DNA from: an uncultured Rivularia sp.
Lineage (GTDB): Bacteria > Cyanobacteriota > Cyanobacteriia > Cyanobacteriales > Nostocaceae
Assembly (NCBI GenBank): GCA_963665115.1
Contig: OY762007.1
Span: forward strand, 1,408,001-1,472,000
Length of the DNA: 64,000 nt
Direction of reading: 5' to 3'
A program made the position numbers and the translations under genes. Of this stretch, positions 35,736 through 52,411 are shown piece by piece. The number at the start of each line of letters is the position of its first letter. Position 1 is the stretch's first letter. The notes under the pieces were generated by a model, which was given only the letters and a program-made list of their open reading frames with translations, made no database searches and had not been told where the DNA came from.

Positions 35736-38700
35736 TTACTGGTTACTGTTCACTGAAAAAAAGTTATCGTAAAAATCAAACATTTGTGAAACGGCTTCGG
35801 GGATAACTTCGCAGTTATGAGAACGTTTTGCTAAAATTCCGAATTGATTTGATATTGTTGAAGCTGCAATTTCTGGATTAGGAATATATTCGGGTGTGGG
35901 AATATCAAAGGATGGCCCTGCTGTTTTTCCGCGTTTACCCGAAGGTAGGGTCATTAATAGTTCTCCCAAGGGACGCATCATTCCTGTCATAATATCTATG
36001 CTGGCGTTCATTAGTTTGGAGCGTCTTAAGCTTCCTTGGGGATTTGAACCGAAGTGTTGAACCATTAATTGCATCATCAGGAAGTAACTTTGGTTGAATA
36101 TTTCCATCACTGTTCTGGTTTGGGGAACGGTAACAACGTTGGAATTATGGTCTTGATGATTCAAGCTGGGATTACGAACAGATGGGTATGAAGGATTCCA
36201 AGTTCTTTTTTCTCCTTTTTTAGATTGATTAATTTGTTCTAAAGAAAGAGCGTCTGCTAAATTGCGGAATTTTTGATAATGGGATTTTGCAAATGTTTCT
36301 GTTTCAATTTCGCTTCCTTCTCCATGTTCTACAATTACGTCTACTGCAAATAAGGCGCTTTTAACGTCATACACCTGCATTTGATAATCTGGATGTTGTT
36401 TATTCAAGTTGTCTCGCATGAATAAACGGTGTTCTCCACCAACTTTGTTTTTATCAACTGTAAATAAGTCGGGAATATTTTGTAATCCATCGCGGATTTG
36501 ACCGTACAATTCGCTTAAGGAACCATATGTATGTAACTGTTCCGATATCGGAATAGTTTCGTTTACAAGGTCTTCGTTAAGAAAATCGGGCATTTCCAAC
36601 CGCATAAAATACTGTAGTGATAAAGCATTTAATGGTTCTAAAGCAAAGTCAATATCTATGGGGAATTTGGCGTTGAGTTGTTTGAAATCGGGAACTGCTG
36701 GATAAAATGGTTCGGCGATCGCCATCAATATATTGTTAACTAAAAGAAAATGAATCATTTCTTCGCGGGCAATTTCCATTAATACTCCCCGCATTCCATA
36801 ATTATCAACTTCTTTGTTATCACCACAAGCTAAATGTAATTGTTCTTGCGTCCATAATCCCCGACGAACGTATTCTTCCCCAGTGACGTAGTTGGGAACC
36901 GAATATCCGGCGTAGATATATTGCAGCATCACGGCAACTTCTAATTCTGCTGCTTGTTTTAATGCTGTGATTAATTCTTCTTTGGTTTTAATTTGATATT
37001 TAGTTTGCTCTGGTTGTTTCTGTTCCGATGGCGGAATATAACCAATTTGCTGTTGATTTTGCAGAAATTTGAGTAAAAGTTGTGATTTAGCTTCGGACAT
37101 ATCTCTTGTGGGGGGCATATAGTAAGTTTTGCTTTTATTTTTGGGGTCGGACATCTGCCACATTAAGCGAGCGTAGGTAGCAACTTTGCATTTATCTGCC
37201 AAGCTAAAAACTTCGGCTTTCATAAACGAGAAGCTGGCTTCGTAGAAAGATAATATATGTTCGTAAATTAAATTAAAATCAACATCTTGTTGCGGAATTT
37301 TATCTAAGTGCCAATCATCACCCATGACTCTTACAGCTAAGAAGCCGGAACTGTTCCAAAATCCCAGTTTATTATCGTTGTCGTAAGCAATTTCCGCTTC
37401 ATCTAAGTTATCGTAGCCACAAGCAATCTCGTTTAAGGAATTAGAAATTAATATTTTGCAAGTTCCGGCTTTGGCTCCTTTTAAAGTAAACCAACCTCTT
37501 CCTTGTTTATTGGTGGAAATTTCGCAACTTGAATTAAATTCTCCTTTATCTAAAAGTTTTCCAGGTTTTAAGCCAACGATTTGAATTTCTGAGCTATGAG
37601 GATAATGAAAAGTTTTATCTGTATTATTACTATCCCTTTCAAATTGATATCGTAATTGAGGAAAAGCTCTAGGATTATAAAATTGATTTACATATATTGA
37701 CTGTACCGATGTCGGAACACCTCTAACAAAAGAGCGCACTTCTAATTCAACAGCGTTATCTTCTCCTTTATCAAGGTTGGGAAATTCGACAAATAAACAA
37801 GCGTCATCAACTTGAAGATTAATTTCCTTCTCTTTTACTAAAACTCTTCTTTCACCATCAACGGTTCCGATAATACACAAACCTTGATTTTCAACGTCAG
37901 AACGTAAATCTTGCCAATTTTTAGAGGGGTAAAAAGGAATATCTACCAAACCGCTAGTTAACTGATGAGCTTGCTTGTTGTATGCTTCTGAAGGGATTTT
38001 TCCGATTAATCTATGACTGTTAACGGTACGAATTTCTAAATCACCTAAATTCAACTTTGAAAAAATCTTGTGAAATCCAGCTTTAGATTCAGGCGATCGC
38101 CCTACATTAGGAATCGCTGTAATCATATTTAAGCTTATCCCCTGAGAATTTAACTTCAACGTCAGATTCCCGATTGCTTTATATTCCGATTCGGGAATTA
38201 ATAACCTTCCACTGGGATAAGTTTTCAATTCCGAAAGACACCATAAACCAATAGTTCCATGTAATTCCCAGAAACTTGGTGCATCAGGTTGAACTGGTGC
38301 AGACATATTGCTGATACTAAACTGCACCACCAAACCCAAAACGTCTTCTCGCTGCATCGCTTCCTTTAACAAAGCAACCGTGGGAGAAATATTTACCTCA
38401 TCATTCCAGAGAAAATCTTCAGCATCCTTGGAAATAGCAAACTGATAAACAGCAGCTTTGCCAAACTCATCATTTAAAATATGGTCTGGTAAATCGCGAA
38501 TATAATCAAAATCTTGCCAGCGAGCTAACTGATAACCTTGTATCGGGGCAGTTACCATATAAGGAACTTGATTGGAATCACCCAACCTACCAAAAGCTAA
38601 CTGACCTAACATAATCGTATTAGTCCAATTAGAAGCCGGGGTCGCATTCAAATATCCTGGCACGATTGACGCTGGTTTTTACATACTCGTTATAATGACC

Positions 38701-39054
38701 CCAAAAATCAACGCTTCTGCCAATAACCGGGTCATTTAAATTAACTTTGCCAAACTCTGTTTGAGTACTAGTAATTTTGGCATCAATTGAAAAATGACCG
38801 TTACCACCGAAATTCCAACCCATTGCTTTACTAAAAGGGCCATTTTCATCTAATTTCCCTTCAGCATTAAATTTTGGGCCTTGATTATAAAGATATTCGT
38901 GATATTCCGAAGCCGAATGATTTTCTTTATAAGGAAGACCATTCATATAACAGGTATTGTCGCTGATGTCGATTAAACCGTTTTTATATCCCGTAGGGGC
39001 ATGAATGCGGGCTAAACCTTGGAAATGTAAGCGAGGGAAATCTAAAACGCTCAT
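35736..39054 (-). CDS. staD: Chromopyrrolic acid synthase family (StaD/RebD/VioB) heme protein, ~1105 aa, frameshift at ~38638-38641
   Basis: N-terminus MSVLDFPRLHF...APTG..NGLID, GPFSKAMGWNFGGNGHF, YYMPPTRD, ferritin-like AAELEVAVMLQYIYA/EEMIH, GKTAGPSF. The two ORFs join as FECDPASNWT after removing one C. Confidence 0.9.
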
Positions 39055-39255: not shown

Positions 39256-40371
39256 ATGCTCCGACGTACTCGCAAGAAGTCAAGTGCTTCTTCATCTAAC
39301 TTAAAATGGTCGTCAAAAACTGAGTTAGTTGGCTTAGAATTTGAGTTATCGCCAGAAAAAGATGGTTATCTTTTCCCACAGTACACTATTGGACTCCATG
39401 CTTGGTTTTTGGATCAAGTACGGCAAGTGGACGCAGAATTTTCTACTTATCTCCATAATGGAGAGTCAGAAAAACCTTTTACCGTCTCTGCTTTCAATGG
39501 AGAAATGATTAGTAGCGGTAGACAAATTCAAGTATTTGCGAATAATAAATATCGCTGGTATCTCACTGCTTTATCTCAACCACTACAGCAATGGATGGCA
39601 GAATGGGTAAAAAAAATGCCTTCTACGATTGATTTACGGACTGTAAGTTTTAAAATTAATGCTTGTAATATTGTTCATGCTCCCACAACTTATGCTCAGT
39701 TGTTAAAGTCGGAAGATAATAAAAATATCACTTTAAAATTTATCAGCCCTACTAGTTTTCGTCGCAAAGGACATCATTTTCCCCTACCATTACCTACGAA
39801 TATTTTTCATAGCTATCTGCGACGCTGGAATAATTTTTCTGGGATTACTTTTGAGCAAGATGATTTTTTGGCTTGGGTGGATGAATGTGTATTGGTAAAT
39901 CGCTGTCAAATCTCAACCGATAAAGTATTGGCAGGTAAAAAAGGAGCGGTGACGGGATTCACTGGTGCAATTGAATTGAGTTTAACTAGAGAAGCAGCCA
40001 AACAACCACAATATCAACAATTATTCTACGCTCTAGGAAAACTCGCACCCTATTGCGGAACCGGACATAAAACCACCTTTGGATTGGGGCAAACCCGGTT
40101 AGGATGGACATCAAAAGTTGTACAAGATATACCCGAAGTAGAAAACCTACTAGCTAAACGCATCGAAGATTTAACAGAAACTTTCAAAGCACAACGCAAG
40201 CGCACCGGGGGAAACAGAGCTAGCGAAATTGCTTCAAAATGGGCGACAATTTTAGCAAGACGAGAAATGGGAGATTCTTTACAAGCAATTGCCCAAGATT
40301 TAGAGATGCCTTACGAAACCGTGAAAACTTATGCTAAGTTAGCGCGACGGGAGTTGAAAAAGCTGGAGTAG
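39256..40371 (+). CDS. cas6: CRISPR endoribonuclease Cas6 with C-terminal HTH-like extension
   Basis: LHAWFL, KPFTVS, FISPTSFR, G-loop YCGTGHKTTFGLG, then ~90 extra aa ending SLQAIAQDLEMPYETVKTY. Confidence 0.93.
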   Translation: MLRRTRKKSSASSSNLKWSSKTELVGLEFELSPEKDGYLFPQYTIGLHAWFLDQVRQVDAEFSTYLHNGESEKPFTVSAFNGEMISSGRQIQVFANNKYRWYLTALSQPLQQWMAEWVKKMPSTIDLRTVSFKINACNIVHAPTTYAQLLKSEDNKNITLKFISPTSFRRKGHHFPLPLPTNIFHSYLRRWNNFSGITFEQDDFLAWVDECVLVNRCQISTDKVLAGKKGAVTGFTGAIELSLTREAAKQPQYQQLFYALGKLAPYCGTGHKTTFGLGQTRLGWTSKVVQDIPEVENLLAKRIEDLTETFKAQRKRTGGNRASEIASKWATILARREMGDSLQAIAQDLEMPYETVKTYAKLARRELKKLE

Positions 40372-40399
40372 TTTTGTATACTTTGTTTTATTGAAATCC

Positions 40400-40668
40400 G
40401 AACCTTGAAAAATGAATATTAAGTTTCCTGGTGAAAGCGAATGTGTTTATGTTTGCTGTTCACACGCAAGTTTTTAGCGGAGGTATGGCGATGTTTGAAA
40501 CGCTTATTCTTCCGTTACCCCCCGCTAATTGCCTGCTATATGGTGCTTTGAAGATGGTGCTTGGGTTAGTTTTTATCGATAATTTTGGTTTGTTGGTAGT
40601 TAAGTTACACCCCCCCGCTAAAATGGCACCTTGGAATCCAGTTATAGTAAGGGTTCTGGAATGGTAGG
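40400..40668 (+). promoter_or_regulatory. CRISPR leader 1
   Basis: Adjacent to the first repeat; colinear and highly similar to the reverse complement of 52144-52411. Confidence 0.85.
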
Positions 40669-41210
40669 GTTTTAATTCCTTTACCCCTCACGGGGATGGA
40701 AACACCTGTTAAGGTCTGACTATTTGTATTATACGCAATATGTTTTAATTCTTTAACCCCTCACGGGGATGGAAACTTTTTTGCAAAGATATCTCTTAAG
40801 ATTATCTCCAATATTAGTTTTAATTCCTTTACCCCTCACGGGGATGGAAACGTACCCGAACGTCAACATTGAAGTCAGAGTAGTAAAAAGTTTTAATTCC
40901 TTTACCCCTCACGGGGATGGAAACGTGCTAAGATTAGGATCACGAACGTAGGTTTTTTTGTTTTAATTCCTTTACCCCTCACGGGGATGGAAACAAGAAA
41001 ACCCTCTCTGAACTTCCCTCTGGAAATTTCTGAGTTTTAATTCCTTTACCCCTCACGGGGATGGAAACCTTCCGTGATATCATTTAGCTTCTGAGTCAGT
41101 CTGGTTTTAATTCCTTTACCCCTCACGGGGATGGAAACGCTAGCTCACCAAACAAAACTGACATTTCAGCTTTATGTTTTAATTTCTTAACCCCTCACGG
41201 GGATTGAAAG
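40669..41210 (+). CRISPR. CRISPR array 1: 8 repeats (GTTTTAATTCCTTTACCCCTCACGGGGATGGAAAC, 35 nt), 7 spacers of 35-40 nt
   Basis: Repeats start at 40669, 40742, 40817, 40890, 40960, 41034, 41104 and 41176 (last degenerate). Confidence 0.98.
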
Positions 41211-41318: not shown

Positions 41319-42128
41319 ATGGATTTACTAACTTCAATTGATATATCTCACGTTTGGGATATAGTTATCGCTCAAACTCCAACCCCAACTCCAACACCTT
41401 CACCAACATTAAATCCTGCGAAAGCTGCGAATGAAATTGAATTACTCAAAAGTCAATTAGAGTTTTTAAAAGCAACTAACGGACAATTAGGTCAAAGCTT
41501 CACTCGATTTGTTAGTGCGATGCAGTTTACTTTAGTTGCATTTGGTTTTTTGGGTGCATTTTTAACTTATATTTTTGGTAAAAATTTAGAAGACGCAAAG
41601 AAAGTTGCTAGCCAGACAATTCAACAAGAAATTGATAGCCATATTGCTGGTTTAGTACAAAAAGAAGTTAGAAATGTAAAACGAACGTTATCACGCGAAC
41701 GAGTTATTAGTTCAACTGTAGTAGATTATTATCTACCATCACCAGAAGGAGAAACAAATGAATATAAGTTACTGCAAGCAAGAGAATTCCAAGATGTAAT
41801 GTTTTGGAATAACATCAATCTTCCCCAGAGATTTACTGGTGATGTATGTGTTTTAGATTTAGAAAATTCAATTGACTCTAATAATCAAAAGTTTTCTCAA
41901 TTACCACAAGATAAACGAGAAGAAACTGCTAAACAAATTTTTGATGGATTTATTAAAATGTTGCCGTCAACCAAGACGATAGTGATTTATGTTGCTCCAC
42001 CAGCACTGAGAGCAATTAATAGTGAAAGATTTAAGGGTATATATTATGCACCTGCAAATACACCAATTACTTTAGTGGGTATGGTGGCTGATGCTGCTTA
42101 TGTAGCAAACGGACAAATTGCTCCGTAA
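41319..42128 (+). CDS. CRISPR-linked membrane protein: PT linker, coiled coil, TM helix, C-terminal Rossmann/REC-like domain; candidate type III effector
   Basis: TM MQFTLVAFGFLGAFLTYIFG; alternating beta/alpha C-terminus (VVDYY, VCVLDL, IVIYV, YYAPANTPITL); lies inside the cas locus. Confidence 0.6.
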   Translation: MDLLTSIDISHVWDIVIAQTPTPTPTPSPTLNPAKAANEIELLKSQLEFLKATNGQLGQSFTRFVSAMQFTLVAFGFLGAFLTYIFGKNLEDAKKVASQTIQQEIDSHIAGLVQKEVRNVKRTLSRERVISSTVVDYYLPSPEGETNEYKLLQAREFQDVMFWNNINLPQRFTGDVCVLDLENSIDSNNQKFSQLPQDKREETAKQIFDGFIKMLPSTKTIVIYVAPPALRAINSERFKGIYYAPANTPITLVGMVADAAYVANGQIAP

Positions 42129-42163: not shown

Positions 42164-42820
42164 TTACTTATGTCTTATATATTTTACTTTTTTCGGAACT
42201 CCATTTTCAGTTTCAGTTATTTTGACGATTACTTGTTGTCCGAGTTCAAGTAATTGAGATTTTTTCGGTTCTTTAACAGTTTTTGTAAAAGTATTAAACA
42301 TTTTATAGGTAACTTTATTCCCACTTTTATTAGTAATCTCGGCTTCTATTTCATCATCAAGTTTTAAATCTTGAGATTTAGCGGCTGTTTGAATTTCTAG
42401 TTTACGATTTAATGCTGATAATTCTTCAAAATCTTCTAAAGGAGTAACTTTAAAGTAGTTAAATAAACGAAATGTCCAACCCAATATTTCTAATATTTGA
42501 TCGGGATTTGATTGGAATTCGATGAGATGCTGATTGCAAGCTTTATGGATACTACGATAGTAACTGGGTGTTTTTTCGCTATGTTTAATGCTTTGGCTGT
42601 TATCAACTAATGCTTTTAAATATTTAAAAAAACTTGTACCAGCTTCAGATTTATTCCGATTTATCGCAGCACGTAAATAAGCTACAATTTTTCCTAATTC
42701 AGAGCGAATTCCATCTTTATTCGCTTCAATATTTTGCTGTTCTTGAACTAGTATTTTCGCAATTTCGTGAGCAGTATTCCACATTTTATCTTCTGAGCAA
42801 GATCCTTTGACTTCCACCAT
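42164..42820 (-). CDS. Type III-D operon terminal protein: helical N-domain plus S1/OB-like C-terminus
   Basis: Co-oriented 15 bp after the last RAMP gene; C-terminal IEAEITNKSGNKVTYK...LELGQQVIVKITE pattern. Confidence 0.6.
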   Translation of the reverse strand: MVEVKGSCSEDKMWNTAHEIAKILVQEQQNIEANKDGIRSELGKIVAYLRAAINRNKSEAGTSFFKYLKALVDNSQSIKHSEKTPSYYRSIHKACNQHLIEFQSNPDQILEILGWTFRLFNYFKVTPLEDFEELSALNRKLEIQTAAKSQDLKLDDEIEAEITNKSGNKVTYKMFNTFTKTVKEPKKSQLLELGQQVIVKITETENGVPKKVKYIRHK

Positions 42821-42835
42821 TTATTTTCCTCTAAT

Positions 42836-43918
42836 TTAGTTGTTAATTCTTAGTATTGCTGTTAATTCCTGTAGCTGCTGAGTTTGTATTAATGGTCTGT
42901 TACCCGGTTTAATCGGTTTTTTTAATTGATTATTATTTGTTGTTACTGGGGTTTGAGGTTTAGCGGATTGGATAGCATCTAATATAAACTGTTTTAATGT
43001 ATTTTCTTCTAAAACCGAATTGTTTGGATTATAGGATAAGTAACGATTAATTTCTAACTGTTCTATTTTAACTATATCAATTTTCATAGTTCCCATTCCT
43101 ACAGCTTTACCGCTACCAATTTTTAATCCCAGTCGGTTTTCTGGATCTTGTCCGAGAGCAATTAATAATGCTCCTAATTGCATTTTTGTTAGGTTGCTAT
43201 AATTCACATAAGTTGTAAATCTTTTTCCTAATTCTGCTTGTTGAATACGAATTGTAGGTGTGACTTCTTCATCTTCTTGGTAGGAATGAGGATAAAACTT
43301 TCTACCGCGAATTTTGTTATTGTTATCGTAATAAATTTTTTCCTGAGTTTCACGATTTTCAGCTTTAGGTTTAGGAGAAAATAAAGCAGGAATCAATCCT
43401 GTATCGAAACCTGATTTATCGTTATCGGGGTCATATTTCGCATCATAAAAATGTACTAATCCCAGCCAATTCATTGCTCCAAATATGACGCAAGCCGGAC
43501 AAAGTTCTGATGTATCTTTACATTCACTGTAATTATTAGGAATCTCTTCTCTTCTGGCATCAGTTTTGCACAAACAACTTCTTGTAATTGCTTCATAAAT
43601 TGAACGTACAACCCCCTTGAGCGAACTACCGGGAATAATAAGTCTGTGGTTTTGCTGTACGGAAGATTGAATTAAGCTTAATTTAGCGACATATCTTGCT
43701 GAAACAGTATCTATTTGCTGTGCTAAATCGCTACCCATGACGGTAATACCTGAATTTACGGATACAGGTGAAACAACTGTTAAATTCAAATATAATTTAC
43801 CGCTAAAACGTTTATTAGTTAGTTGATATTTATTGTGACCAAACTTTTGATTACCTTGAATGTTTATTCTGTCAGGTGCTGTTTGAGGAAGAGAAATAAA
43901 ATTATAGTTACTAGGCAT
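42836..43918 (-). CDS. Cas7-group RAMP (type III-D)
   Basis: IIPGSSLKGVVRSIYEAIT, CPACVIFG, IRGRKFY, KIGSGKAVGMG. Confidence 0.9.
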   Translation of the reverse strand: MPSNYNFISLPQTAPDRINIQGNQKFGHNKYQLTNKRFSGKLYLNLTVVSPVSVNSGITVMGSDLAQQIDTVSARYVAKLSLIQSSVQQNHRLIIPGSSLKGVVRSIYEAITRSCLCKTDARREEIPNNYSECKDTSELCPACVIFGAMNWLGLVHFYDAKYDPDNDKSGFDTGLIPALFSPKPKAENRETQEKIYYDNNNKIRGRKFYPHSYQEDEEVTPTIRIQQAELGKRFTTYVNYSNLTKMQLGALLIALGQDPENRLGLKIGSGKAVGMGTMKIDIVKIEQLEINRYLSYNPNNSVLEENTLKQFILDAIQSAKPQTPVTTNNNQLKKPIKPGNRPLIQTQQLQELTAILRINN

Positions 43919-43953
43919 ATTTTTTGAGATTTTTTTAAATTAAAGTTCACAAA

Positions 43954-44418
43954 TTACTTGTTTATAGTTAGAGCGACAAAATGCACTGTTGAAGTTTGAA
44001 CATCTTGAAAATAACGCTGAGCTAAAGATATTTTTTTCGGCTCTATATTATCTTGAGATTCATTTTTGTAAGTAAACCCTTGAGGGAATTTAGTTTCATC
44101 AATATCATAAAAATATGCATTGCGATCGCAAGTTTTCCAATGTTTACCAATAGAGTTAAATTCTAATTCCTTATTTGGCTGATTTTGACTGAGCAACAAC
44201 ACTTGATACCCGCTACTATTTTTTTTCCAGCGTAACTCTAATTCCACGTTAAACATTTGCCCTTCTGCACTAATAAATTCGGGTGGTAAATAAGTTAAAA
44301 TACCACTAACCTTGTGTTTCCAACGCAGAAAATAATAACTGGGTTGCCGATAACAATCTTTGAGTAATGTTTGTAATTTTTCAGAAGATGAAACTTGTTT
44401 ACAACCAACAAAAGTCAT
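43954..44418 (-). CDS. csx19: Csx19-like type III-D subunit
   Basis: EGQMFNVELELRWKK, LAQRYF...VHFVAL; size and position between RAMPs. Confidence 0.7.
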   Translation of the reverse strand: MTFVGCKQVSSSEKLQTLLKDCYRQPSYYFLRWKHKVSGILTYLPPEFISAEGQMFNVELELRWKKNSSGYQVLLLSQNQPNKELEFNSIGKHWKTCDRNAYFYDIDETKFPQGFTYKNESQDNIEPKKISLAQRYFQDVQTSTVHFVALTINK

Positions 44419-45386
44419 GCACTAACTCCCTGTGGTAAGATATCACGCCATTGACGAACAGCACGCTCAAATAAATCTGGGACACCCCTTTCACTATCAC
44501 CTTCCCAAATAAGCTGTACTCCAAAACCATAAGACATTTCTTCTGCTGTAATTATTGAGTCCTGTTTATCATCAATCGGAAATCCATACAGGTTTTCTTC
44601 TTGTAAAAATTCTCCTGCTCCTAATAAAAACGTTTTTGGCCAATTTAATTCTTTCCCAATGGCGTAGATTTTATCATCTCGCAACTCACAACCAGGATAT
44701 TGCACTACTGCTGAGTGAAGTTGTAGTTTGACTGTACCCATACCGCGAGATTTGGCAAAACCAATACCAAACCAACCGTCATTTAAGTCACGCAATACTA
44801 AACCAATTAAACCCAACTGTGCTAAAGAGAAATTTTTCAGGTGAATTTTTGTGCGAAAATCTCCAGATGTACAAACTTCGTAGTTAAATAATGCACCCCT
44901 GACAGCAGAGCCAAATACTCTATCGATCGCGACTCCATTACGTTCTTCAATTTTCAATGGTTGGGATGGATTGGGATAAGCATCTTCGATACGAAGCCGA
45001 CTAGCTATGATAGTACTGCCAAATAATTGGTCGGTAAACGAAGATTTTTTGTAGATTTCATGGGGAAGTAACTTCTTTTTTAATTCTTCTTGATTTCTAA
45101 TATTTTGCTTATCTAATGGATTACTAGCCCAAATAGTTGTACTATTTTCTGATGGTGGTTTATCATCACCTACAGTTCTGACAATGCGTTCGGCATGAGC
45201 GCGAATTGCCCCTTTAAGCGAACTTCCTGGTAAAAAAATCGAACGTCCACCAGCATGATAAGTTTCCACAAATTCCATATCAGGTTTAGTTGGGTTTGCA
45301 CCTTCTTTTCCCGACTTAATTAAAATTGGCCCATCGGGAATTATGCTGAGTTCAATAGTGCATTGGTTAACTAATCGCTTATGCAT
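44415..45386 (-). CDS. Cas7-group RAMP (Csm3-like)
   Basis: LPGSSLKGAIRAHAERI, RNGVAIDR, GFAKSRGMG. Confidence 0.9.
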   Translation of the reverse strand: MHKRLVNQCTIELSIIPDGPILIKSGKEGANPTKPDMEFVETYHAGGRSIFLPGSSLKGAIRAHAERIVRTVGDDKPPSENSTTIWASNPLDKQNIRNQEELKKKLLPHEIYKKSSFTDQLFGSTIIASRLRIEDAYPNPSQPLKIEERNGVAIDRVFGSAVRGALFNYEVCTSGDFRTKIHLKNFSLAQLGLIGLVLRDLNDGWFGIGFAKSRGMGTVKLQLHSAVVQYPGCELRDDKIYAIGKELNWPKTFLLGAGEFLQEENLYGFPIDDKQDSIITAEEMSYGFGVQLIWEGDSERGVPDLFERAVRQWRDILPQGVSA

Positions 45387-45388
45387 GA

Positions 45389-46255
45389 CTAATTTTCTCC
45401 GCTTGTGGTATTAGCTATAGATTTTTCTGGAATTAAACACCTCAAGTACCAAAGTAGAGCTTCAGTCCATTTCTTCTTGAAATCATTAATTTCTTCTCCT
45501 CGATACTGATATTCATCCATATTTCCTGCAACTTGATTTTGCATATATGTTAATAACTTTCCAGAATCACCTTCTGCATCAAACCACTGCATTTGGTCAA
45601 TTTCCAAACGCACAACTCCTAAACCACGAGAACGCCCACCTCCGAGCGGTATCTGTTCGCTTTCAAACTGATGTAAACCAATCGCCAACAAACCTAGTTC
45701 CCACTTTTCGGCATTTTCTACTACTACTTTCATATCAAAACTAGTACCAGAAGGAACTACCTGAAAATCATATAGTTTTCCATCTGCTGCTGTTTCAGTA
45801 TCCCTATCAATTGCAACACCATCTCGTTCTTGATATTGTCCAAACCATGTATCGGCAACTACGGTTAAATCCCGCACTTGAAATTTACTAGCAAACCAAG
45901 GAGAACCGAATAAACGAGAAATTGAATCAGTTTGCTCTAATAATTGATCTGTTAAAACAGCATCATCTTGATAATCTTCCTTTAACTTTTTTATTGCTTG
46001 GTTACGAGCTTGACTGGTAAAATTAGCTGGATCTTCTGCTAAATTGATATTAATCCCCCGCAAAAAACTTTCAAGACGCGATCGCAATGCACCTTTGAAG
46101 CTGGCACCAGGAATTAATGGTCTATCTAATGCATCTTTTATTACAGGTAAATCGGCTCCAATTGGTTCGGTAGAACGACCGGAACTAATACGTAATGCGG
46201 TGACTGTAGAAAGTTTTCCAGTTATTTCTAAACGATTTTTAAACACATCAAACAT
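45389..46255 (-). CDS. csm3: Cas7-group RAMP Csm3 (Csx7-type)
   Basis: ADLPVIKD, IPGASFKGALRS, RDGVAIDRDTETA, LGGGRSRGLG. Confidence 0.9.
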   Translation of the reverse strand: MFDVFKNRLEITGKLSTVTALRISSGRSTEPIGADLPVIKDALDRPLIPGASFKGALRSRLESFLRGININLAEDPANFTSQARNQAIKKLKEDYQDDAVLTDQLLEQTDSISRLFGSPWFASKFQVRDLTVVADTWFGQYQERDGVAIDRDTETAADGKLYDFQVVPSGTSFDMKVVVENAEKWELGLLAIGLHQFESEQIPLGGGRSRGLGVVRLEIDQMQWFDAEGDSGKLLTYMQNQVAGNMDEYQYRGEEINDFKKKWTEALLWYLRCLIPEKSIANTTSGEN

Positions 46256-46260
46256 AATTA

Positions 46261-46758
46261 TTATCCGGTTTGATTATTTTCTTCAACATTTTGTAAGTCA
46301 ATACGAGCGTCTATAATAGATGAATCTTTTTCTGTTTTTATTTTGTTGAGATACGTTAAATAGCGAGAACCATAACCAATATAACGACGAATTAACTGTA
46401 TCCAAATATATTTAAAATCCGCACCGGGGTTATCCGTTTCTATTTGTTTAGCTTTAACTTTGATAGAAACATCTATATCCTGAATGATTCGAGCAGCAAG
46501 AGAATCTTTACCTCTTCCCCATTTTTCATCCCTACCAACTTGATAACAAATAAAATTTTTAATCACTTCTGCGCTATCAGTTGTGTCAGCAACGCGGAGT
46601 AAATTATTAAACTGCGATTCCTCTAATTTTTTATTCCCAGATTTAGTATATTTACAATTATCTAAAGCGGTTTCTATTGCAATCACTAAATCATCTTCTG
46701 ATTGACGAATTGCTTGCTGTACTTTTAGCGCAATCTTTGGATCTAATATTTGAGTCAT
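46261..46758 (-). CDS. Probable small subunit (Cas11/Csm2-like)
   Basis: Small helical protein, ESQFNNLL...NFICYQVGR, position in operon. Confidence 0.65.
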   Translation of the reverse strand: MTQILDPKIALKVQQAIRQSEDDLVIAIETALDNCKYTKSGNKKLEESQFNNLLRVADTTDSAEVIKNFICYQVGRDEKWGRGKDSLAARIIQDIDVSIKVKAKQIETDNPGADFKYIWIQLIRRYIGYGSRYLTYLNKIKTEKDSSIIDARIDLQNVEENNQTG

Positions 46759-48032
46759 TTAGCCTCCTCTCGAAAAACTTGATGAAATTCATTACAAACT
46801 TCCACCTGTCCAAAACCTTCACAAGTGCGATCGCCTATTCCCGTTTTTGATAAATTTTCTAATGCTAAATACCATTTTTCTGGTTGCTTTGTACTAAATA
46901 AGTATACAGAACCTTTATTAGTAACTAATTCCACGTCTTTCATCAATCCCCAAGCGGAATTCCATCCACTACGGTAGTCATAGCTACTGTAAGCAACGTG
47001 CATTTCCAGCGATGAATCGTCAACATTGGTAAAATCTTTGAGCATACACTTTGAAATAACCGTAGTTCGCTGCCAGTTTTCGCTTAAAATAGCATCAGAT
47101 TGTAAATCGATAGTGAAATAAGTTTTACCTGTTAATAAATCATTTTCACATTTACCGAAAATAGACCAAAGTCCCCATCTAGTTTGCAACGTTTGATTAA
47201 ATTCTTCAATTCGATTTTGAATTCTTTTGATTGATGTTTCTTGTCTGCTAACTTCAATTTTGACTTTACCTAAACCCCTAGAAACAGAACCACCTATGCG
47301 AAAGTTATTTTTATTTCTTTGAATAAAATCTTGCAACTTTCCAGCTAAAGATTCATCAGAAACCCGCACAAAACCGCGAAAAACAAAATTATTCCATTCA
47401 TCCGTTTTAGTACTTTTCAAAAAAGACTCATTTAAAACTTGAATGCTGTAAAGAATTTCTTCTTCCGAAGTTGCACGACGGCGATTAATTCCCACCCGCG
47501 TTAAAAAACGGCTACTTGCATCATGACTGTAATAATGACTATCTACTAAGCTATAAAAACTACCGTAAGTTTCCACCTGGGGGTTTGTTCCTTGGGCGAT
47601 CGCTCTTGGATCGCTCGACTCAAAAGGTTGATTATAAGCTGCTGCACAAAAAGCATCAATAAGAGTATCAAAAACTCCATGTCCATTGCTACACTTAAAA
47701 CCCGGATTGGTTTTGGAACTAACAGCAGTTGCTGGTAAAACCTTGATTTGACTACTGACAGCTATCGATTCATCATTGATTTTCCTCACTGCTGGATAAG
47801 CATTGCCAAAAATAGCCGGACTTTCATCTAAAAATAAACTTTGAAAATCACCTCCATTTTCCGCTAGATTTGCAGAATATCGACCGGATAAATGTAAAAT
47901 TTGAGAGGCGATCGCACCCCGCAAAACCGAACCAGAAATATAGTTTTCTACCTCGCTAACGGAAGTACCGGGTTTTAGTTTTCCTAGTGCCAGGGGAGAT
48001 AAAGCTGTAATAGTTAATTCCAGTTGCGTCAT
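46755..48032 (-). CDS. csx10: Csx10 (Cas5-group RAMP)
   Basis: ALSPL, YISGSVLRGAIA, RVGINRRR, IGGSVSRGLG, GIGDRTCEGFG; start ATG 48032 overlaps upstream TGA. Confidence 0.85.
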   Translation of the reverse strand: MTQLELTITALSPLALGKLKPGTSVSEVENYISGSVLRGAIASQILHLSGRYSANLAENGGDFQSLFLDESPAIFGNAYPAVRKINDESIAVSSQIKVLPATAVSSKTNPGFKCSNGHGVFDTLIDAFCAAAYNQPFESSDPRAIAQGTNPQVETYGSFYSLVDSHYYSHDASSRFLTRVGINRRRATSEEEILYSIQVLNESFLKSTKTDEWNNFVFRGFVRVSDESLAGKLQDFIQRNKNNFRIGGSVSRGLGKVKIEVSRQETSIKRIQNRIEEFNQTLQTRWGLWSIFGKCENDLLTGKTYFTIDLQSDAILSENWQRTTVISKCMLKDFTNVDDSSLEMHVAYSSYDYRSGWNSAWGLMKDVELVTNKGSVYLFSTKQPEKWYLALENLSKTGIGDRTCEGFGQVEVCNEFHQVFREEAK

Positions 48033-48742
48033 GGCTTTACCTCTGGTAATAAACTTAACCAAGCCTCATCGTTTTTCGTAATTTTTGGTAATCCTTTCCA
48101 GCGCAACCAACCCAACCCCGCAGACTTGCTACCACCCAGAGCATGAATATGATGTAAAGCTGCAATTATCAAAGGTTTAGCATAATTTGGGCAGTCTGGT
48201 TGTAGATGAATTTCTCCTTTAAAACTTAGTTGAGCATTTGCGGGAGAAGTTTCTAATAAATATAATTTTTTCTCATCTGCGGTACGTCTTCTGCGGTTAA
48301 TTGTCACCCCCGGACGCAATACTTCTGGTAAATCTACTGAGGCAAAATCACAAATTAGGTCATCAACAATAATTCGTGAAGGTAAAATCGGATTGCCAAA
48401 TATCTGAGAAACCAAACAGTGATATCCTCGATAGCCAGAAACTTGATAAGCTGTTCTAAACTGACTAGAAACTTCCGTTTCTTGAGGGCAAAGTGATTTA
48501 GCTGTGGGTGCAGAAAAGATTTGCCATCCCAAACAACGCGCCAATTTCTCGCATTCATGACGCAATCTGCCTTTAAGTTGAGAAGCTGGAATCAATAGTT
48601 GCCCTTGTGCATTACGCACAATAGGTTTGTCAGCTAAAGAACCACTCGATCCACCTGCACCTACACACAATGCACTATCAATTACAGCATTGAGAATAAT
48701 AGTATCAGTTTCTATTGAAGTAAGGTTATCCAAATCAATCAT
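48029..48742 (-). CDS. Cas7-group RAMP (Csm3-like)
   Basis: SALCVGAGG...ADKPIVR, IPASQLKGRLRH, RPGVTINR, LGGSKSAGLG. Confidence 0.9.
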   Translation of the reverse strand: MIDLDNLTSIETDTIILNAVIDSALCVGAGGSSGSLADKPIVRNAQGQLLIPASQLKGRLRHECEKLARCLGWQIFSAPTAKSLCPQETEVSSQFRTAYQVSGYRGYHCLVSQIFGNPILPSRIIVDDLICDFASVDLPEVLRPGVTINRRRRTADEKKLYLLETSPANAQLSFKGEIHLQPDCPNYAKPLIIAALHHIHALGGSKSAGLGWLRWKGLPKITKNDEAWLSLLPEVKP

Positions 48743-51108
48743 TAATTTACCTCCCGTGGAGATGATTCCTCTGCAATAAATTCATCTGCTTCTTCTGGAA
48801 TAAATGGATATAAATCAACTAATTCTCGCCAAATCGTTTCGTAGGTCATTTTCGATTTTTCTGCTTCTTGTGATTCTTCTTGTAAAGACATCCAAGGTGC
48901 TAAATTTCCATGATTAGATGATTCTTTTGGTTGACACCAAGCTAATTCAAATCTTTCCTGTAATTCTTGTCTAGCCAATTCGTTTGTTAAACGAACGCGA
49001 AAATAGCGATAATTAAGGATAGCTGTACGCTTACCTTTTTCCAGTAAACTGCGAATTTGATAAAGTTGCGAACGAGGAAATTTAGCTTTTTTAAAAGCAT
49101 GAGCAGTTTCCAAAAGTCCTCCTAATTCATGTAGAGTATAGGGAGAAGCATAAAGCTTTAATTTGGATTGTCCATCTTTATTCTTAATTAATCCCTGCTC
49201 CCGAAATTCCTTGATATTAGAAGAAATCATCGTTACAGCTTTCATTACTAAAAAATCTACAGTTCCACTATAATATTGATGGTCTTTCTTCAATTCTTTA
49301 GCATATTTTTTCGCAGATTTTAATAATTGACTAACTAATTTATCTGCATAGTATATCGGTGTATCTTGCGCTGTAATTAAAACCCCAGTTGACATACTCA
49401 ACAGACATTTAGAAGCTGGGATATTATCTGTAATGTAACGATGTGTAAATGAATTATATTTCTCTTCTTTTAATGAATAATTTCGAGTTTGTAGTAATAA
49501 CCTTTCAAATTCATCGCCAATCATCTTAGCAATTTCTAAAGCCTTGTCAGCCGGTACAACTAAGAGTACATCATCACCACCAATAGTAATAATTTCAAAA
49601 GGATGAATTAAAACGGATTCTTTTTTCCTTCTGCTAGATTTAGCATCAGGTGTATATTTAGAAGGATGTAAATAACTTGCTAAAGCTTTGTAAACAGATT
49701 TCTCGGTAGCATTAAAAATATCTTGACTAAAAAGTCGATAGCTCTGGGATGTTTTAATCTTTTGACGAATATAGCCACCCATATTATTACCATCAGCATA
49801 GATATAAGCAACAAATCCTGATGGATTACTTGAGGAAGCAATTTCTCTTAAAGAGCGTGCTTCTTCTACTTTGTCTTTCTCACTAACACCAACAGAGCTA
49901 TAATATCGATTTGCTAATTCTTGGTTCCCTTCTTCTTCAAGAAACTTCTTAAACTTATCTACCCAACTAGGAATCCAAATATCACCAGGTTTCCATTCCA
50001 AACCAGCATTGTTATACCATGCATGAGAACTTTCCCGTTTAGCAACCTCTCCTACTAAACGTTTTCGCGCTAAAGGCTCCGATAAAAAGCGAGTATTTGG
50101 CAACTCTGCCGTCATGATTGCACAACGGCGATCGCTTTCATCTCGTCGTAGATAAGGATGAGTTTCAAACATCGGTGGGTAGCAACGACTGGGACGATTT
50201 TCAACAGAATTACCGTTCTGACGAGGAGTGAATTCGTTATTTTCAACAGAATTACCATTCCGACGACGGGTGAATTCGTTAGCCAATTTTCCCACCAATT
50301 CATTAAAATTCTTACGGTTGTGAAACCTTTGCAAAGGATTGCTAACTTCCGACTGCTCGAAATAACTTTTAACTATGGGATTTTCTTGATTTTTCTCATA
50401 CTTATCAAACCAAAAAGTATCTTCAATATTGTCTTGCAATAATCCAAATCGAAATTCCAACAACCGGAAAGTATCGCCAACCGCACAGGAATTTGCTGTT
50501 AAAGTTTCATCGGTATAGCGTTTTTCAATTGCATTCGCCAAATCATCAACAAAAGCTGCCGGACAAAATGCGAGAATATTACCACCTGTAGAGTAGACGA
50601 TCAATTCCGGAATTAAAGCTTGTCTTAGATTTAGATTAGGAAAATTTCTATCCAACCACTGCTCAATTGTAATTGACTTCTGACCTTCACCAAAAAAAGC
50701 AGGTAAATCAACCAAATTTATTCTATCGAGAAGCGCAGAAGCACCGCGTATATCATGGAGTTTAGCAGCTTCAAACACATATTGTTTAATCTTTGTCGCA
50801 CCACCATAAACCAAACCGATAGGTGTATCTTCATCCCAAAGATTTGGATATTTATCTTTTAATTGTAAAAGTGTCTGAGGTTGATATTCTTCACCAATAT
50901 CATAAAGTTGCTCTGCCAGCTTTACAAAACGTTGCACCTCATCAGGTAAAACCTGCTTTTCACCCTCACTTGCGCTTGTAGGAGCTAATAATACCTGTCG
51001 CATTTTCTTCAATTCACTGAGTTCATCCTGAACCAAAGTGTGCTTTTTGCCCCAAGCGAGACACCAAGCAAAAGCAGTGATTGTGCGCGTGCGAGAGTCG
51101 TTTGTCAT
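48742..51108 (-). CDS. cas10: Cas10, no HD domain evident, intact palm GGDD
   Basis: KIKQYVF...IRGASALLD, YSTGGN, YIYADGNNMG, IITIGGDDV, MSTGV, FPRSQLY. Confidence 0.95.
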   Translation of the reverse strand: MTNDSRTRTITAFAWCLAWGKKHTLVQDELSELKKMRQVLLAPTSASEGEKQVLPDEVQRFVKLAEQLYDIGEEYQPQTLLQLKDKYPNLWDEDTPIGLVYGGATKIKQYVFEAAKLHDIRGASALLDRINLVDLPAFFGEGQKSITIEQWLDRNFPNLNLRQALIPELIVYSTGGNILAFCPAAFVDDLANAIEKRYTDETLTANSCAVGDTFRLLEFRFGLLQDNIEDTFWFDKYEKNQENPIVKSYFEQSEVSNPLQRFHNRKNFNELVGKLANEFTRRRNGNSVENNEFTPRQNGNSVENRPSRCYPPMFETHPYLRRDESDRRCAIMTAELPNTRFLSEPLARKRLVGEVAKRESSHAWYNNAGLEWKPGDIWIPSWVDKFKKFLEEEGNQELANRYYSSVGVSEKDKVEEARSLREIASSSNPSGFVAYIYADGNNMGGYIRQKIKTSQSYRLFSQDIFNATEKSVYKALASYLHPSKYTPDAKSSRRKKESVLIHPFEIITIGGDDVLLVVPADKALEIAKMIGDEFERLLLQTRNYSLKEEKYNSFTHRYITDNIPASKCLLSMSTGVLITAQDTPIYYADKLVSQLLKSAKKYAKELKKDHQYYSGTVDFLVMKAVTMISSNIKEFREQGLIKNKDGQSKLKLYASPYTLHELGGLLETAHAFKKAKFPRSQLYQIRSLLEKGKRTAILNYRYFRVRLTNELARQELQERFELAWCQPKESSNHGNLAPWMSLQEESQEAEKSKMTYETIWRELVDLYPFIPEEADEFIAEESSPREVN

Positions 51109-51318: not shown

Positions 51319-52143
51319 GTTTTCATCCCCGTGAGGGGTTAAAGAATTAAAACTAATGCTCGATCAAGGTGGAACAGCTTCTGTTGCTGAGTTTCCATCC
51401 CCGTGAGGGGCTAAGGAATTAAAACCATGTCTGCTTTCCCCGGAGCGAAAGATGCTGGACAGTTTCCATCCCCGTGAGGGGTTAAAGAATTAAAACCAGA
51501 TTTGTAAGAATACATCAAAATAGCGAGGGAAAAGTTTCCATCCCCGTGAGGGGTTAAAGAATTAAAATAAAGAGTTGGAGGAATAGGAATTATCCTTGCT
51601 TCAGTTTCCATCCCCGTGAGGGGTTAAAGAATTAAAACCTTTTCTCCGGCTCTTGCTGGTAGCAATGGGATTAAGTTTCCATCCCCGTGAGGGGTTAAAG
51701 AATTAAAACACCTAGTGGAAAATATGGCAGTGGAACTCGCTAATTTGTTTCCATCCCCGTGAGGGGTTAAAGAATTAAAACGACTTGATTGACTTTCGCC
51801 CCATCGCTTGCAAGATGTTTCCATCCCCGTGAGGGGTTAAAGAATTAAAACACGAATATCTGGAACTGGAGCACACGTTGTGCATTCAGTGGTTTCCATC
51901 CCCGTGAGGGGTTAAAGAATTAAAACCAGTTTATTTTAGATATTTTTTCTGGATGTGGTAAAGATTGTTTCCATCCCCGTGAGGGGTTAAAGAATTAAAA
52001 CCGTTGATTGGGATTGCGATAAGAATGGAACTTTCTCGTTTCCATCCCCGTGAGGGGTTAAAGAATTAAAACAAGTTACAAGTAATAAATTCGCTATATT
52101 TGCGGATCGTTTCCATCCCCGTGAGGGGTTAAAGAATTAAAAC
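51319..52143 (-). CRISPR. CRISPR array 2: 12 repeats (GTTTTAATTCTTTAACCCCTCACGGGGATGGAAAC), 11 spacers of 35-40 nt
   Basis: Plus-strand repeat starts at 51319, 51391, 51462, 51534, 51604, 51675, 51747, 51817, 51892, 51967, 52038, 52109; variant repeats cluster at the leader-distal (left) end. Confidence 0.98.
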
Positions 52144-52411
52144 CCTACCTATTTAGAACCCTTACTATAACTGGATTCCAAGGTGCCATTTTAGCGGGGG
52201 GTCTAATTTAACTACCAATAAACCGAAGTTATCGATAAAAACTAACCCAAACACCAGCTTCAAAGCACCATGCAATAGTCAATTAGCGGGGGGTAACGGA
52301 AGAATCATTGTTATGGCGATCGCCCTACCCCCGCTAAAATCTTACGTATACTCTGTCAAAACAAACACTGCTGTTTTGAATTGGAAACGTATAATTAAGT
52401 TGTCAAGGTTC
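52144..52411 (-). promoter_or_regulatory. CRISPR leader 2
   Basis: Inverted homologue of 40400-40668 (e.g. ccgctaaaatggcaccttggaatccagttatagtaagggttct identical). Confidence 0.85.

Follow-up and report, generated by a model that had tools for sequence, protein, structure and literature searches.

The gene at positions 41,319 to 42,128 of the window (the whole stretch of 64,000 nt analysed) is a real gene and a fresh member of an already catalogued protein family, and we propose, with a probability of roughly 0.6, that it encodes a Cam2-type effector of an HD-less type III-D CRISPR system, which binds cA3 made by Cas10 and disturbs the membrane. The broader statement, that the protein is an effector gated by a nucleotide from Cas10, can be made with good confidence. 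A membrane disruption gated by cyclic oligoadenylates (cOA), as the preliminary description had suggested for this gene, has already been put forward in print in the description of Cam2 (PMC11229360). The gene itself is not new, since its family entered the catalogues in 2018 and the proposal of a cA3 effector dates from 2024; what is new here is the comparative support, good for the effector role and moderate for cA3.

Table 1. Coordinates and supporting data of the features discussed (positions refer to the window, except for the last row, which refers to homologue loci).
Feature	Position	Strand	Remark
cas6 with C-terminal HTH domain	39256..40371	+	
CRISPR array 1, 8 repeats of 35 nt, last repeat degenerate	40669..41210	+	
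Candidate effector gene, C3a55/Mem_02 family (likely Cam2)	41319..42128	+	269 aa, ATG start
N-terminal helix, residues 33-60, predicted coiled coil outside the membrane	41415..41498	+	part of AF2 helix 33-86
Single predicted transmembrane helix, residues 64-82	41508..41564	+	Kyte-Doolittle peak 1.86
REC/flavodoxin-like domain, residues 131-269, putative pseudo-receiver	41709..42125	+	AF2 pLDDT about 90-98 over most
csx21, final gene of the cas operon	42164..42820	-	PADLOC Csx21 E 2e-69
Type III-D core: Cas7-like RAMP, csx19, two csx7/csm3, csm2, csx10, csm3	42836..48742	-	
cas10, HD-less, GGDD at 49570-49581 (residue 510)	48742..51108	-	788 aa
CRISPR array 2, 12 repeats, oriented towards cas10	51319..52143	-	
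C3a59 genes of homologue loci	L016:1356-1889, L045:1102-1644, and 7 more loci		

The cas genes of the minus strand form an operon in the order cas10, csm3, csx10, csm2, two csx7, csx19, a further RAMP and csx21, and the presence of cas10, csx10, csx19, csm2 and several Cas7-group RAMPs identifies it as type III-D; cas1 and cas2 are absent from this locus. The candidate gene begins about 110 bp downstream of the degenerate last repeat of array 1 and is convergent with csx21, the two stop codons being separated by 35 bp. Promoter and terminator scans stayed at chance level (7 vs 6.0). The candidate had been regarded as the only clearly non-core gene between the arrays, which needs some qualification: csx21 is also accessory with no assigned function, yet it is a regular member of III-D control operons (see below) that do not have the candidate gene, and therefore behaves like a core gene. 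The two arrays face each other across the III-D locus, their leaders (40372-40668 and 52144-52400) have sequence blocks in common, and none of the spacers is matched in full by another part of the genome.

Cas10 was confirmed to keep its GGDD motif and to be devoid of an HD nuclease. Palm1 starts near residue 99, so that fewer than 100 residues precede it and the protein is therefore without an HD domain; the only HD dipeptide, at residue 118, falls within the Palm1 motif, and the Pfam HD_5 profile gave an E value of 0.021, below cut-off. Since the Palm motifs are the same as those of related Cas10s accompanied by CARF effectors, the cyclase is probably active, as far as its sequence tells.

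In agreement with the preliminary description, no protein of the locus matched Csx1, Csm6, Can, NucC or SAVED, and tblastn with 95 CARF/Csx3 reference proteins found nothing in the whole window at E≤1e-5. The slot between csm2 and cas7, where control III-D loci usually have a CARF effector, is empty here. The further step of taking the candidate for the effector because the locus has no other loses force in this genome, which has Cam1- and Cami1-like effectors at another type III locus. The candidate gene might be dispensable in this genome, with the III-D complex signalling by cA4 to the effectors of this distant III-B locus, since a TM-CARF, a CARF-RelE and a Csx3-AAA protein are encoded at G000:C1 about 1.683-1.694 Mb, about 240 kb away, and the III-B locus' own cas10 is split into ORFs of 222 and 355 aa. 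We consider this improbable, as it leaves unexplained why the gene is retained intact across a whole Cas10 clade of other genomes; moreover, the two routes are compatible, and cas10 may be split by an assembly error. The III-B locus as a whole (L082/L083, G000:C1 about 1683000-1712000) has, besides the three genes just named, which are Cam1-like, Cami1-like and Csx3-AAA, respectively, an E1-like gene, a short CorA-like ORF, a WYL gene, an RT adjoining cas1 and a 90-repeat array.

Family membership of the candidate is straightforward: the PADLOC profiles Mem_02 (E 5e-93) and C3a55 (E 1e-83) matched it at full length, over residues 1-266, so that it belongs to the family C3a55/Mem_02 (PDLC01054, PDLC01156). 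C3a55 is entered for III-B and III-D loci in the type III catalogue of Shah et al. (2019, PMC6546367). The labels "ABC permease" and "2TM" attached to these profiles are a misfit, the candidate and 80 of 106 aligned homologues having one transmembrane (TM) segment plus a REC-like domain. Outside PADLOC, Pfam and NCBIfam gave no match over cut-off, the best match among PDB sequences had an E value of 1.8, Foldseek with the predicted model retrieved only generic alpha/beta and G-alpha structures, an Atlas search with residues 120-269 gave no usable match, and no homologue was found among 50,697 phage records. At E≤0.001, 120 homologues were collected, and a profile search extended the family to 195 clusters at 50% identity, the longest protein among the best 150 of these 195 cluster representatives having 312 aa. 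The named homologues are cyanobacterial; the family is present in 61 of 389 genomes of the window's own taxonomic family and in 11 of 401 genomes of a phylum sample.

The AlphaFold2 model of the protein (91 sequences, mean pLDDT 83, pTM 0.61) consists of a long helix (residues 33-86), a second helix (90-131) and a five-strand alpha/beta domain, thus bearing out the coiled coil, TM and Rossmann/REC-like architecture described at first. Only one hydrophobic segment (64-82) is present, helical in the model, and the preceding part of the helix has conserved positions at L43, Q46, L50 and N54. Lys and Arg are richer after the TM segment than before it in 94 of the 106 aligned homologues and poorer in one; by the positive-inside rule the REC-like domain would therefore be placed in the cytoplasm, with the N-terminal helix outside. 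A second, N-terminal hydrophobic segment found in 24 of the 106 homologues may be a signal peptide. The motif ANTPITL, which the protein was said to end with, is present at residues 246-252 and hence not at the very end of the 269 aa.

When compared with REC domains by VIA-align, the C-terminal domain gave a Z score of 9.8 over 118 aligned residues (rmsd 3.1-3.3 Å); cobalamin-binding-type folds tie with the REC domains (top row Z 10.3), and REC folds with Z about 10 are frequent and tell nothing of function. Taken with the type III context, this score backs the proposed likeness to TM-REC proteins of the Cam2 type. No CARF profile matched the candidate, with PADLOC followed up to an E value of 1, which separates it from the CARF-TM architecture of Cam1.

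Canonical receivers have an acidic pair after strand 1, an Asp after strand 3, a Thr or Ser after strand 4 and a Lys after strand 5. In the candidate only the phospho-acceptor Asp is found: D180 (codon 41856-41858), at the end of strand 3 by the strand order of the model, is invariant in 106 of 106 homologues. The position of the acidic pair is taken by Leu/Pro, the place after strand 4 by Val (Thr in 13 of 106 homologues) and that of the Lys by N247 (Asn in 101 of 106). Together with the conserved R122, R126 and R155, these residues suggest a pseudo-receiver with a possible phosphate-binding patch. The invariant Asp at the acceptor position could instead point to a true phospho-receiver, through which a two-component pathway would regulate the CRISPR locus, but the three missing signature positions speak against it, the protein has no output domain and no histidine kinase occurs among the annotated neighbours of the homologues, so that this explanation is highly improbable.

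The distribution of the family was evaluated on 67 homologue loci, namely 62 of 68 matches from the family scan (leaving out the own genome, the second piece of one gene and four weak matches) and 5 of 6 non-family matches from the phylum sample. Type III genes occur in 53 of them, cas1, cas2 or cas6 only in 4, and no cas gene in the stretch in 10, among which one is next to an array, another next to a CD-NTase, and two more are broken or partial; the homologues are thus not found mostly outside CRISPR loci, which, by the preliminary description, would have spoken against the effector reading. The type III loci cover III-D, III-B and III-A; the protein tree groups by subtype and yet requires 14 label changes. 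Within the four main clusters, every one of the 46 loci that have a cas10 ORF retains GGDD in Cas10, as does the window.

As controls, 40 III-D-sized and 20 III-B-sized cas10 loci, distant from any homologue, were chosen among 150 matches listed. None of these 60 loci has a homologue of the candidate, and CARF effectors of the Cami1, Csx1, Can2 and Cam1 types were present in 35 of the 40 III-D and in all 20 III-B controls. By contrast, the 95 CARF/Csx3 references had no match in the 67 homologue loci or the window, and no CARF domain was found by Pfam scan of the cluster representatives and 104 further neighbours of the homologues. With CARF effectors in 55 of 60 controls versus none of 67 homologue loci, the candidate family stands in the place of CARF effectors. 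The 27 III-D Cas10s linked to the family form a single clade, and the counts are therefore equal to roughly 4-5 independent associations. Csx3 shows the same pattern (26 of 40 III-D controls, none of the 67 homologue loci), although the flank covered past cas10 is about 2 kb in the latter versus 3.5 kb in the III-D controls and could hide an upstream Csx3.

The same loci bear on a non-toxic accessory role, in which the protein would anchor the Cas complex to the membrane or act as a membrane-bound signal sink or off-switch. Anchoring has been suggested by Shmakov et al. (preprint, 10.1101/270033) for membrane proteins of type III loci in which no domain is recognised, and an off-switch could be needed in loci that have SAVED-CHAT and lack a known ring nuclease. 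Such a role would nevertheless leave most loci (the 59 of 67 without SAVED-CHAT) with an intact cyclase but no effector; the family accompanies three complex types, as would hardly be expected of a docking partner, and one homologue lies beside a CD-NTase with no cas genes. An accessory role is therefore quite unlikely, and an effector gated by Cas10 remains the preferred reading.

Some further differences between the two sets of loci were recorded. Arg at position 448 of Cas10 (instead of Gln) appeared diagnostic of the linked proteins (27/27 vs 38/39) and was rejected as such because the sister, CARF-linked Cas10 of L089 has it too; it is not common to III-B Cas10s and was treated as a clade mark. 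One genome (G541) has a III-D locus without recognised effector and, elsewhere, a solitary homologue of the candidate (L108 and L019), which possibly serves that locus in trans. In 32 of the 40 CARF-type III-D loci (L123:8448-9068 and 31 other controls), the two cas7 genes have a 206-aa PD-(D/E)XK gene between them, which was matched in only 2 of the 67 candidate-family loci; it may be part of the cA4 module.

As to the signal, SAVED-CHAT is the only known co-effector of the homologue loci, being present in 8 of 67, in 4 of them within 300 bp of the homologue, with full-length ORFs of 406-444 aa. The annotated plasmid NZ_CP040299.1 has the same adjacency; named plasmids were not counted separately, as they may duplicate homologue loci. 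SAVED-CHAT is described as cA3-activated (PMC11229360). According to PMC12409355, ring nucleases for cA4 are not found together with effectors responding to other signals, and the missing Csx3 of the homologue loci thus fits a non-cA4 signal. In L073, a contig of 2980 bp that has no cas genes, an intact CD-NTase follows a divergent homologue after 12 bp, and in L071 a broken CD-NTase adjoins a homologue. The CD-NTase of L043, from the same cluster as that of L073, had only weak PDB matches (E about 2e-5), among them 6P8U/6P82, a cAAA synthase, and they are too weak for assigning its product. Overall, cA3 is our best guess for the signal, at somewhat better than even odds. In L073 (165-2645), homologue, CD-NTase and a RadC-like JAB gene follow one another on the same strand, possibly as a CBASS-like operon employing a candidate-type effector. 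A search of the window's own genome for SAVED found none, the controls likewise giving no match; tblastn with SAVED-CHAT gave strong matches of CHAT-domain length, read as CHAT-only proteins. The SMODS family search missed a known CD-NTase in one genome (G509), so that such family searches are insensitive.

The mechanism we propose can be outlined as follows. Target RNA would switch on Cas10, which would make cA3; cA3 would bind at the interfaces of an oligomer, for which a trimer would match the symmetry of the ligand, and the putative site is a basic/aromatic patch formed by R122, R126, E127, Y137, R155, F157, D180, Y224 and N247. The 40-residue linker helix could then transmit the change to the TM bundle, which would lead to depolarisation and growth arrest. 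A trimer with one TM helix in each subunit offers rather little for building a pore. Alternatively, the membrane effector could respond to a Cas10 product other than cA3, be it cA4, cA6 or a nucleotide of linear or mixed type, and may then form a tetramer: the exclusion of CARF effectors points to an effector role and says nothing of the ligand, type III complexes produce cOA mixtures according to the products described in PMC11734703, and Csx23 is reported as a tetrameric non-CARF cA4 sensor (PMC11014256). However, cA4 effectors often stack per locus and keep Csx3, neither a cA4 effector nor Csx3 being seen in the 67 loci, and the sole co-effector, SAVED-CHAT, is of the cA3 type; we regard another ligand as unlikely and keep cA3 as the preferred signal.

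The closest published counterpart is Cam2, which Hoikkala et al. (2024, PMC11229360), in their account of it, describe as TM + REC in 26 loci, two of them beside SAVED-CHAT, predict to be a cA3-gated trimer, and compare with REC domains at Z 9.3. The candidate shares with it an N-terminal TM, a REC-fold domain and no kinase, and its locus is, as described for Cam2, an HD-less, cyclase-positive type III locus without known effector. The same account gives three SAVED-CHAT loci, two of which are cyanobacterial III-B with proteins of 438 and 441 aa, and the candidate family adjoins SAVED-CHAT in just such a cyanobacterial III-B setting. Because full-length SAVED-CHAT ORFs adjoin the family as described there, the candidate is very probably identical with Cam2, the two being compared by the published description. 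No experimental test of Cam2, and no further CRISPR paper dealing with it, was found in the literature searched, which has few subscription papers.

The tested cA4-gated membrane effectors Csx23 and Cam1 likewise combine a membrane helix with a cytoplasmic sensor as sole effector, and by analogy their scheme is a likely working model for the candidate; they differ from it in the sensor fold (CARF in Cam1, novel in Csx23), in the cA4 ligand and in being tetramers. Membership in the NARF domain family (nucleotidyltransferase-associated Rossmannoid fold, PF20299), the other affinity mentioned in the preliminary description, did not hold: the query had no match, and only 5 of 106 homologues matched weakly (best E 0.0013), none reaching the Pfam cut-off, while 301 phylum genomes yielded one weak match and none over cut-off. 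The candidate has Atlas neighbours with 30% NARF members (score 0.84-0.86), and a CD-NTase neighbour is occasionally shared; NARF is at most a remote relative.

A second family of similar build, C3a59 (PDLC01057), adjoins cas10 in 9 of the candidate-family III-D loci and in none of the 60 controls. Its model has a TM and a REC-like domain (pLDDT 86, Z 12.2), and the C3a59 and C3a55 profiles are weakly similar (P 2e-4, probability 46%). The two families share this fold, a similar C-terminal motif and III-D loci in common, while C3a59 proteins are of about 180 aa, without outer coiled coil and without the invariant Asp; this points to membrane pseudo-receivers as a broader class. In L043 and L045, C3a59 is followed by a SMODS CD-NTase. 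The "TM of variable length" of Cam2 in PMC11229360 may also cover C3a59.

A more tentative reading, for which we would claim well under even odds, is that the pseudo-receiver represents a class of cyclic-trinucleotide sensors beside CARF and SAVED, found in C3a55/Cam2 and C3a59 and spanning type III and CBASS-like CD-NTase operons, and that a whole cyanobacterial III-D lineage switched from a cA4/CARF to a cA3 membrane route. According to the account of Cam2 in PMC11229360, no REC fold has been linked experimentally to nucleotide sensing. The locus described here, being compact and having an intact cyclase together with only one candidate effector, lends itself to a clean test. Should the result be positive, prokaryotic immunity would gain a sensor fold and type III CRISPR a membrane effector gated by cA3.

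Two minor observations concern genes near these loci. In the window, a vioB-like gene (iminophenyl-pyruvate dimer synthase; 35736-39054, minus strand) is present as two ORFs (141 and 975 aa) that overlap, by frameshift or assembly error; elsewhere in the genome cas3d and cas10 are split and cas6d is short, and these latter cases hint at assembly errors or decay. In L035 (14613-15334) and about 20 related loci, a conserved trio of small ORFs (89, 108 and 84 aa), with no Pfam or PADLOC match, follows cas2; the first two resemble, by eye, a RelE-type toxin and an HTH antitoxin.
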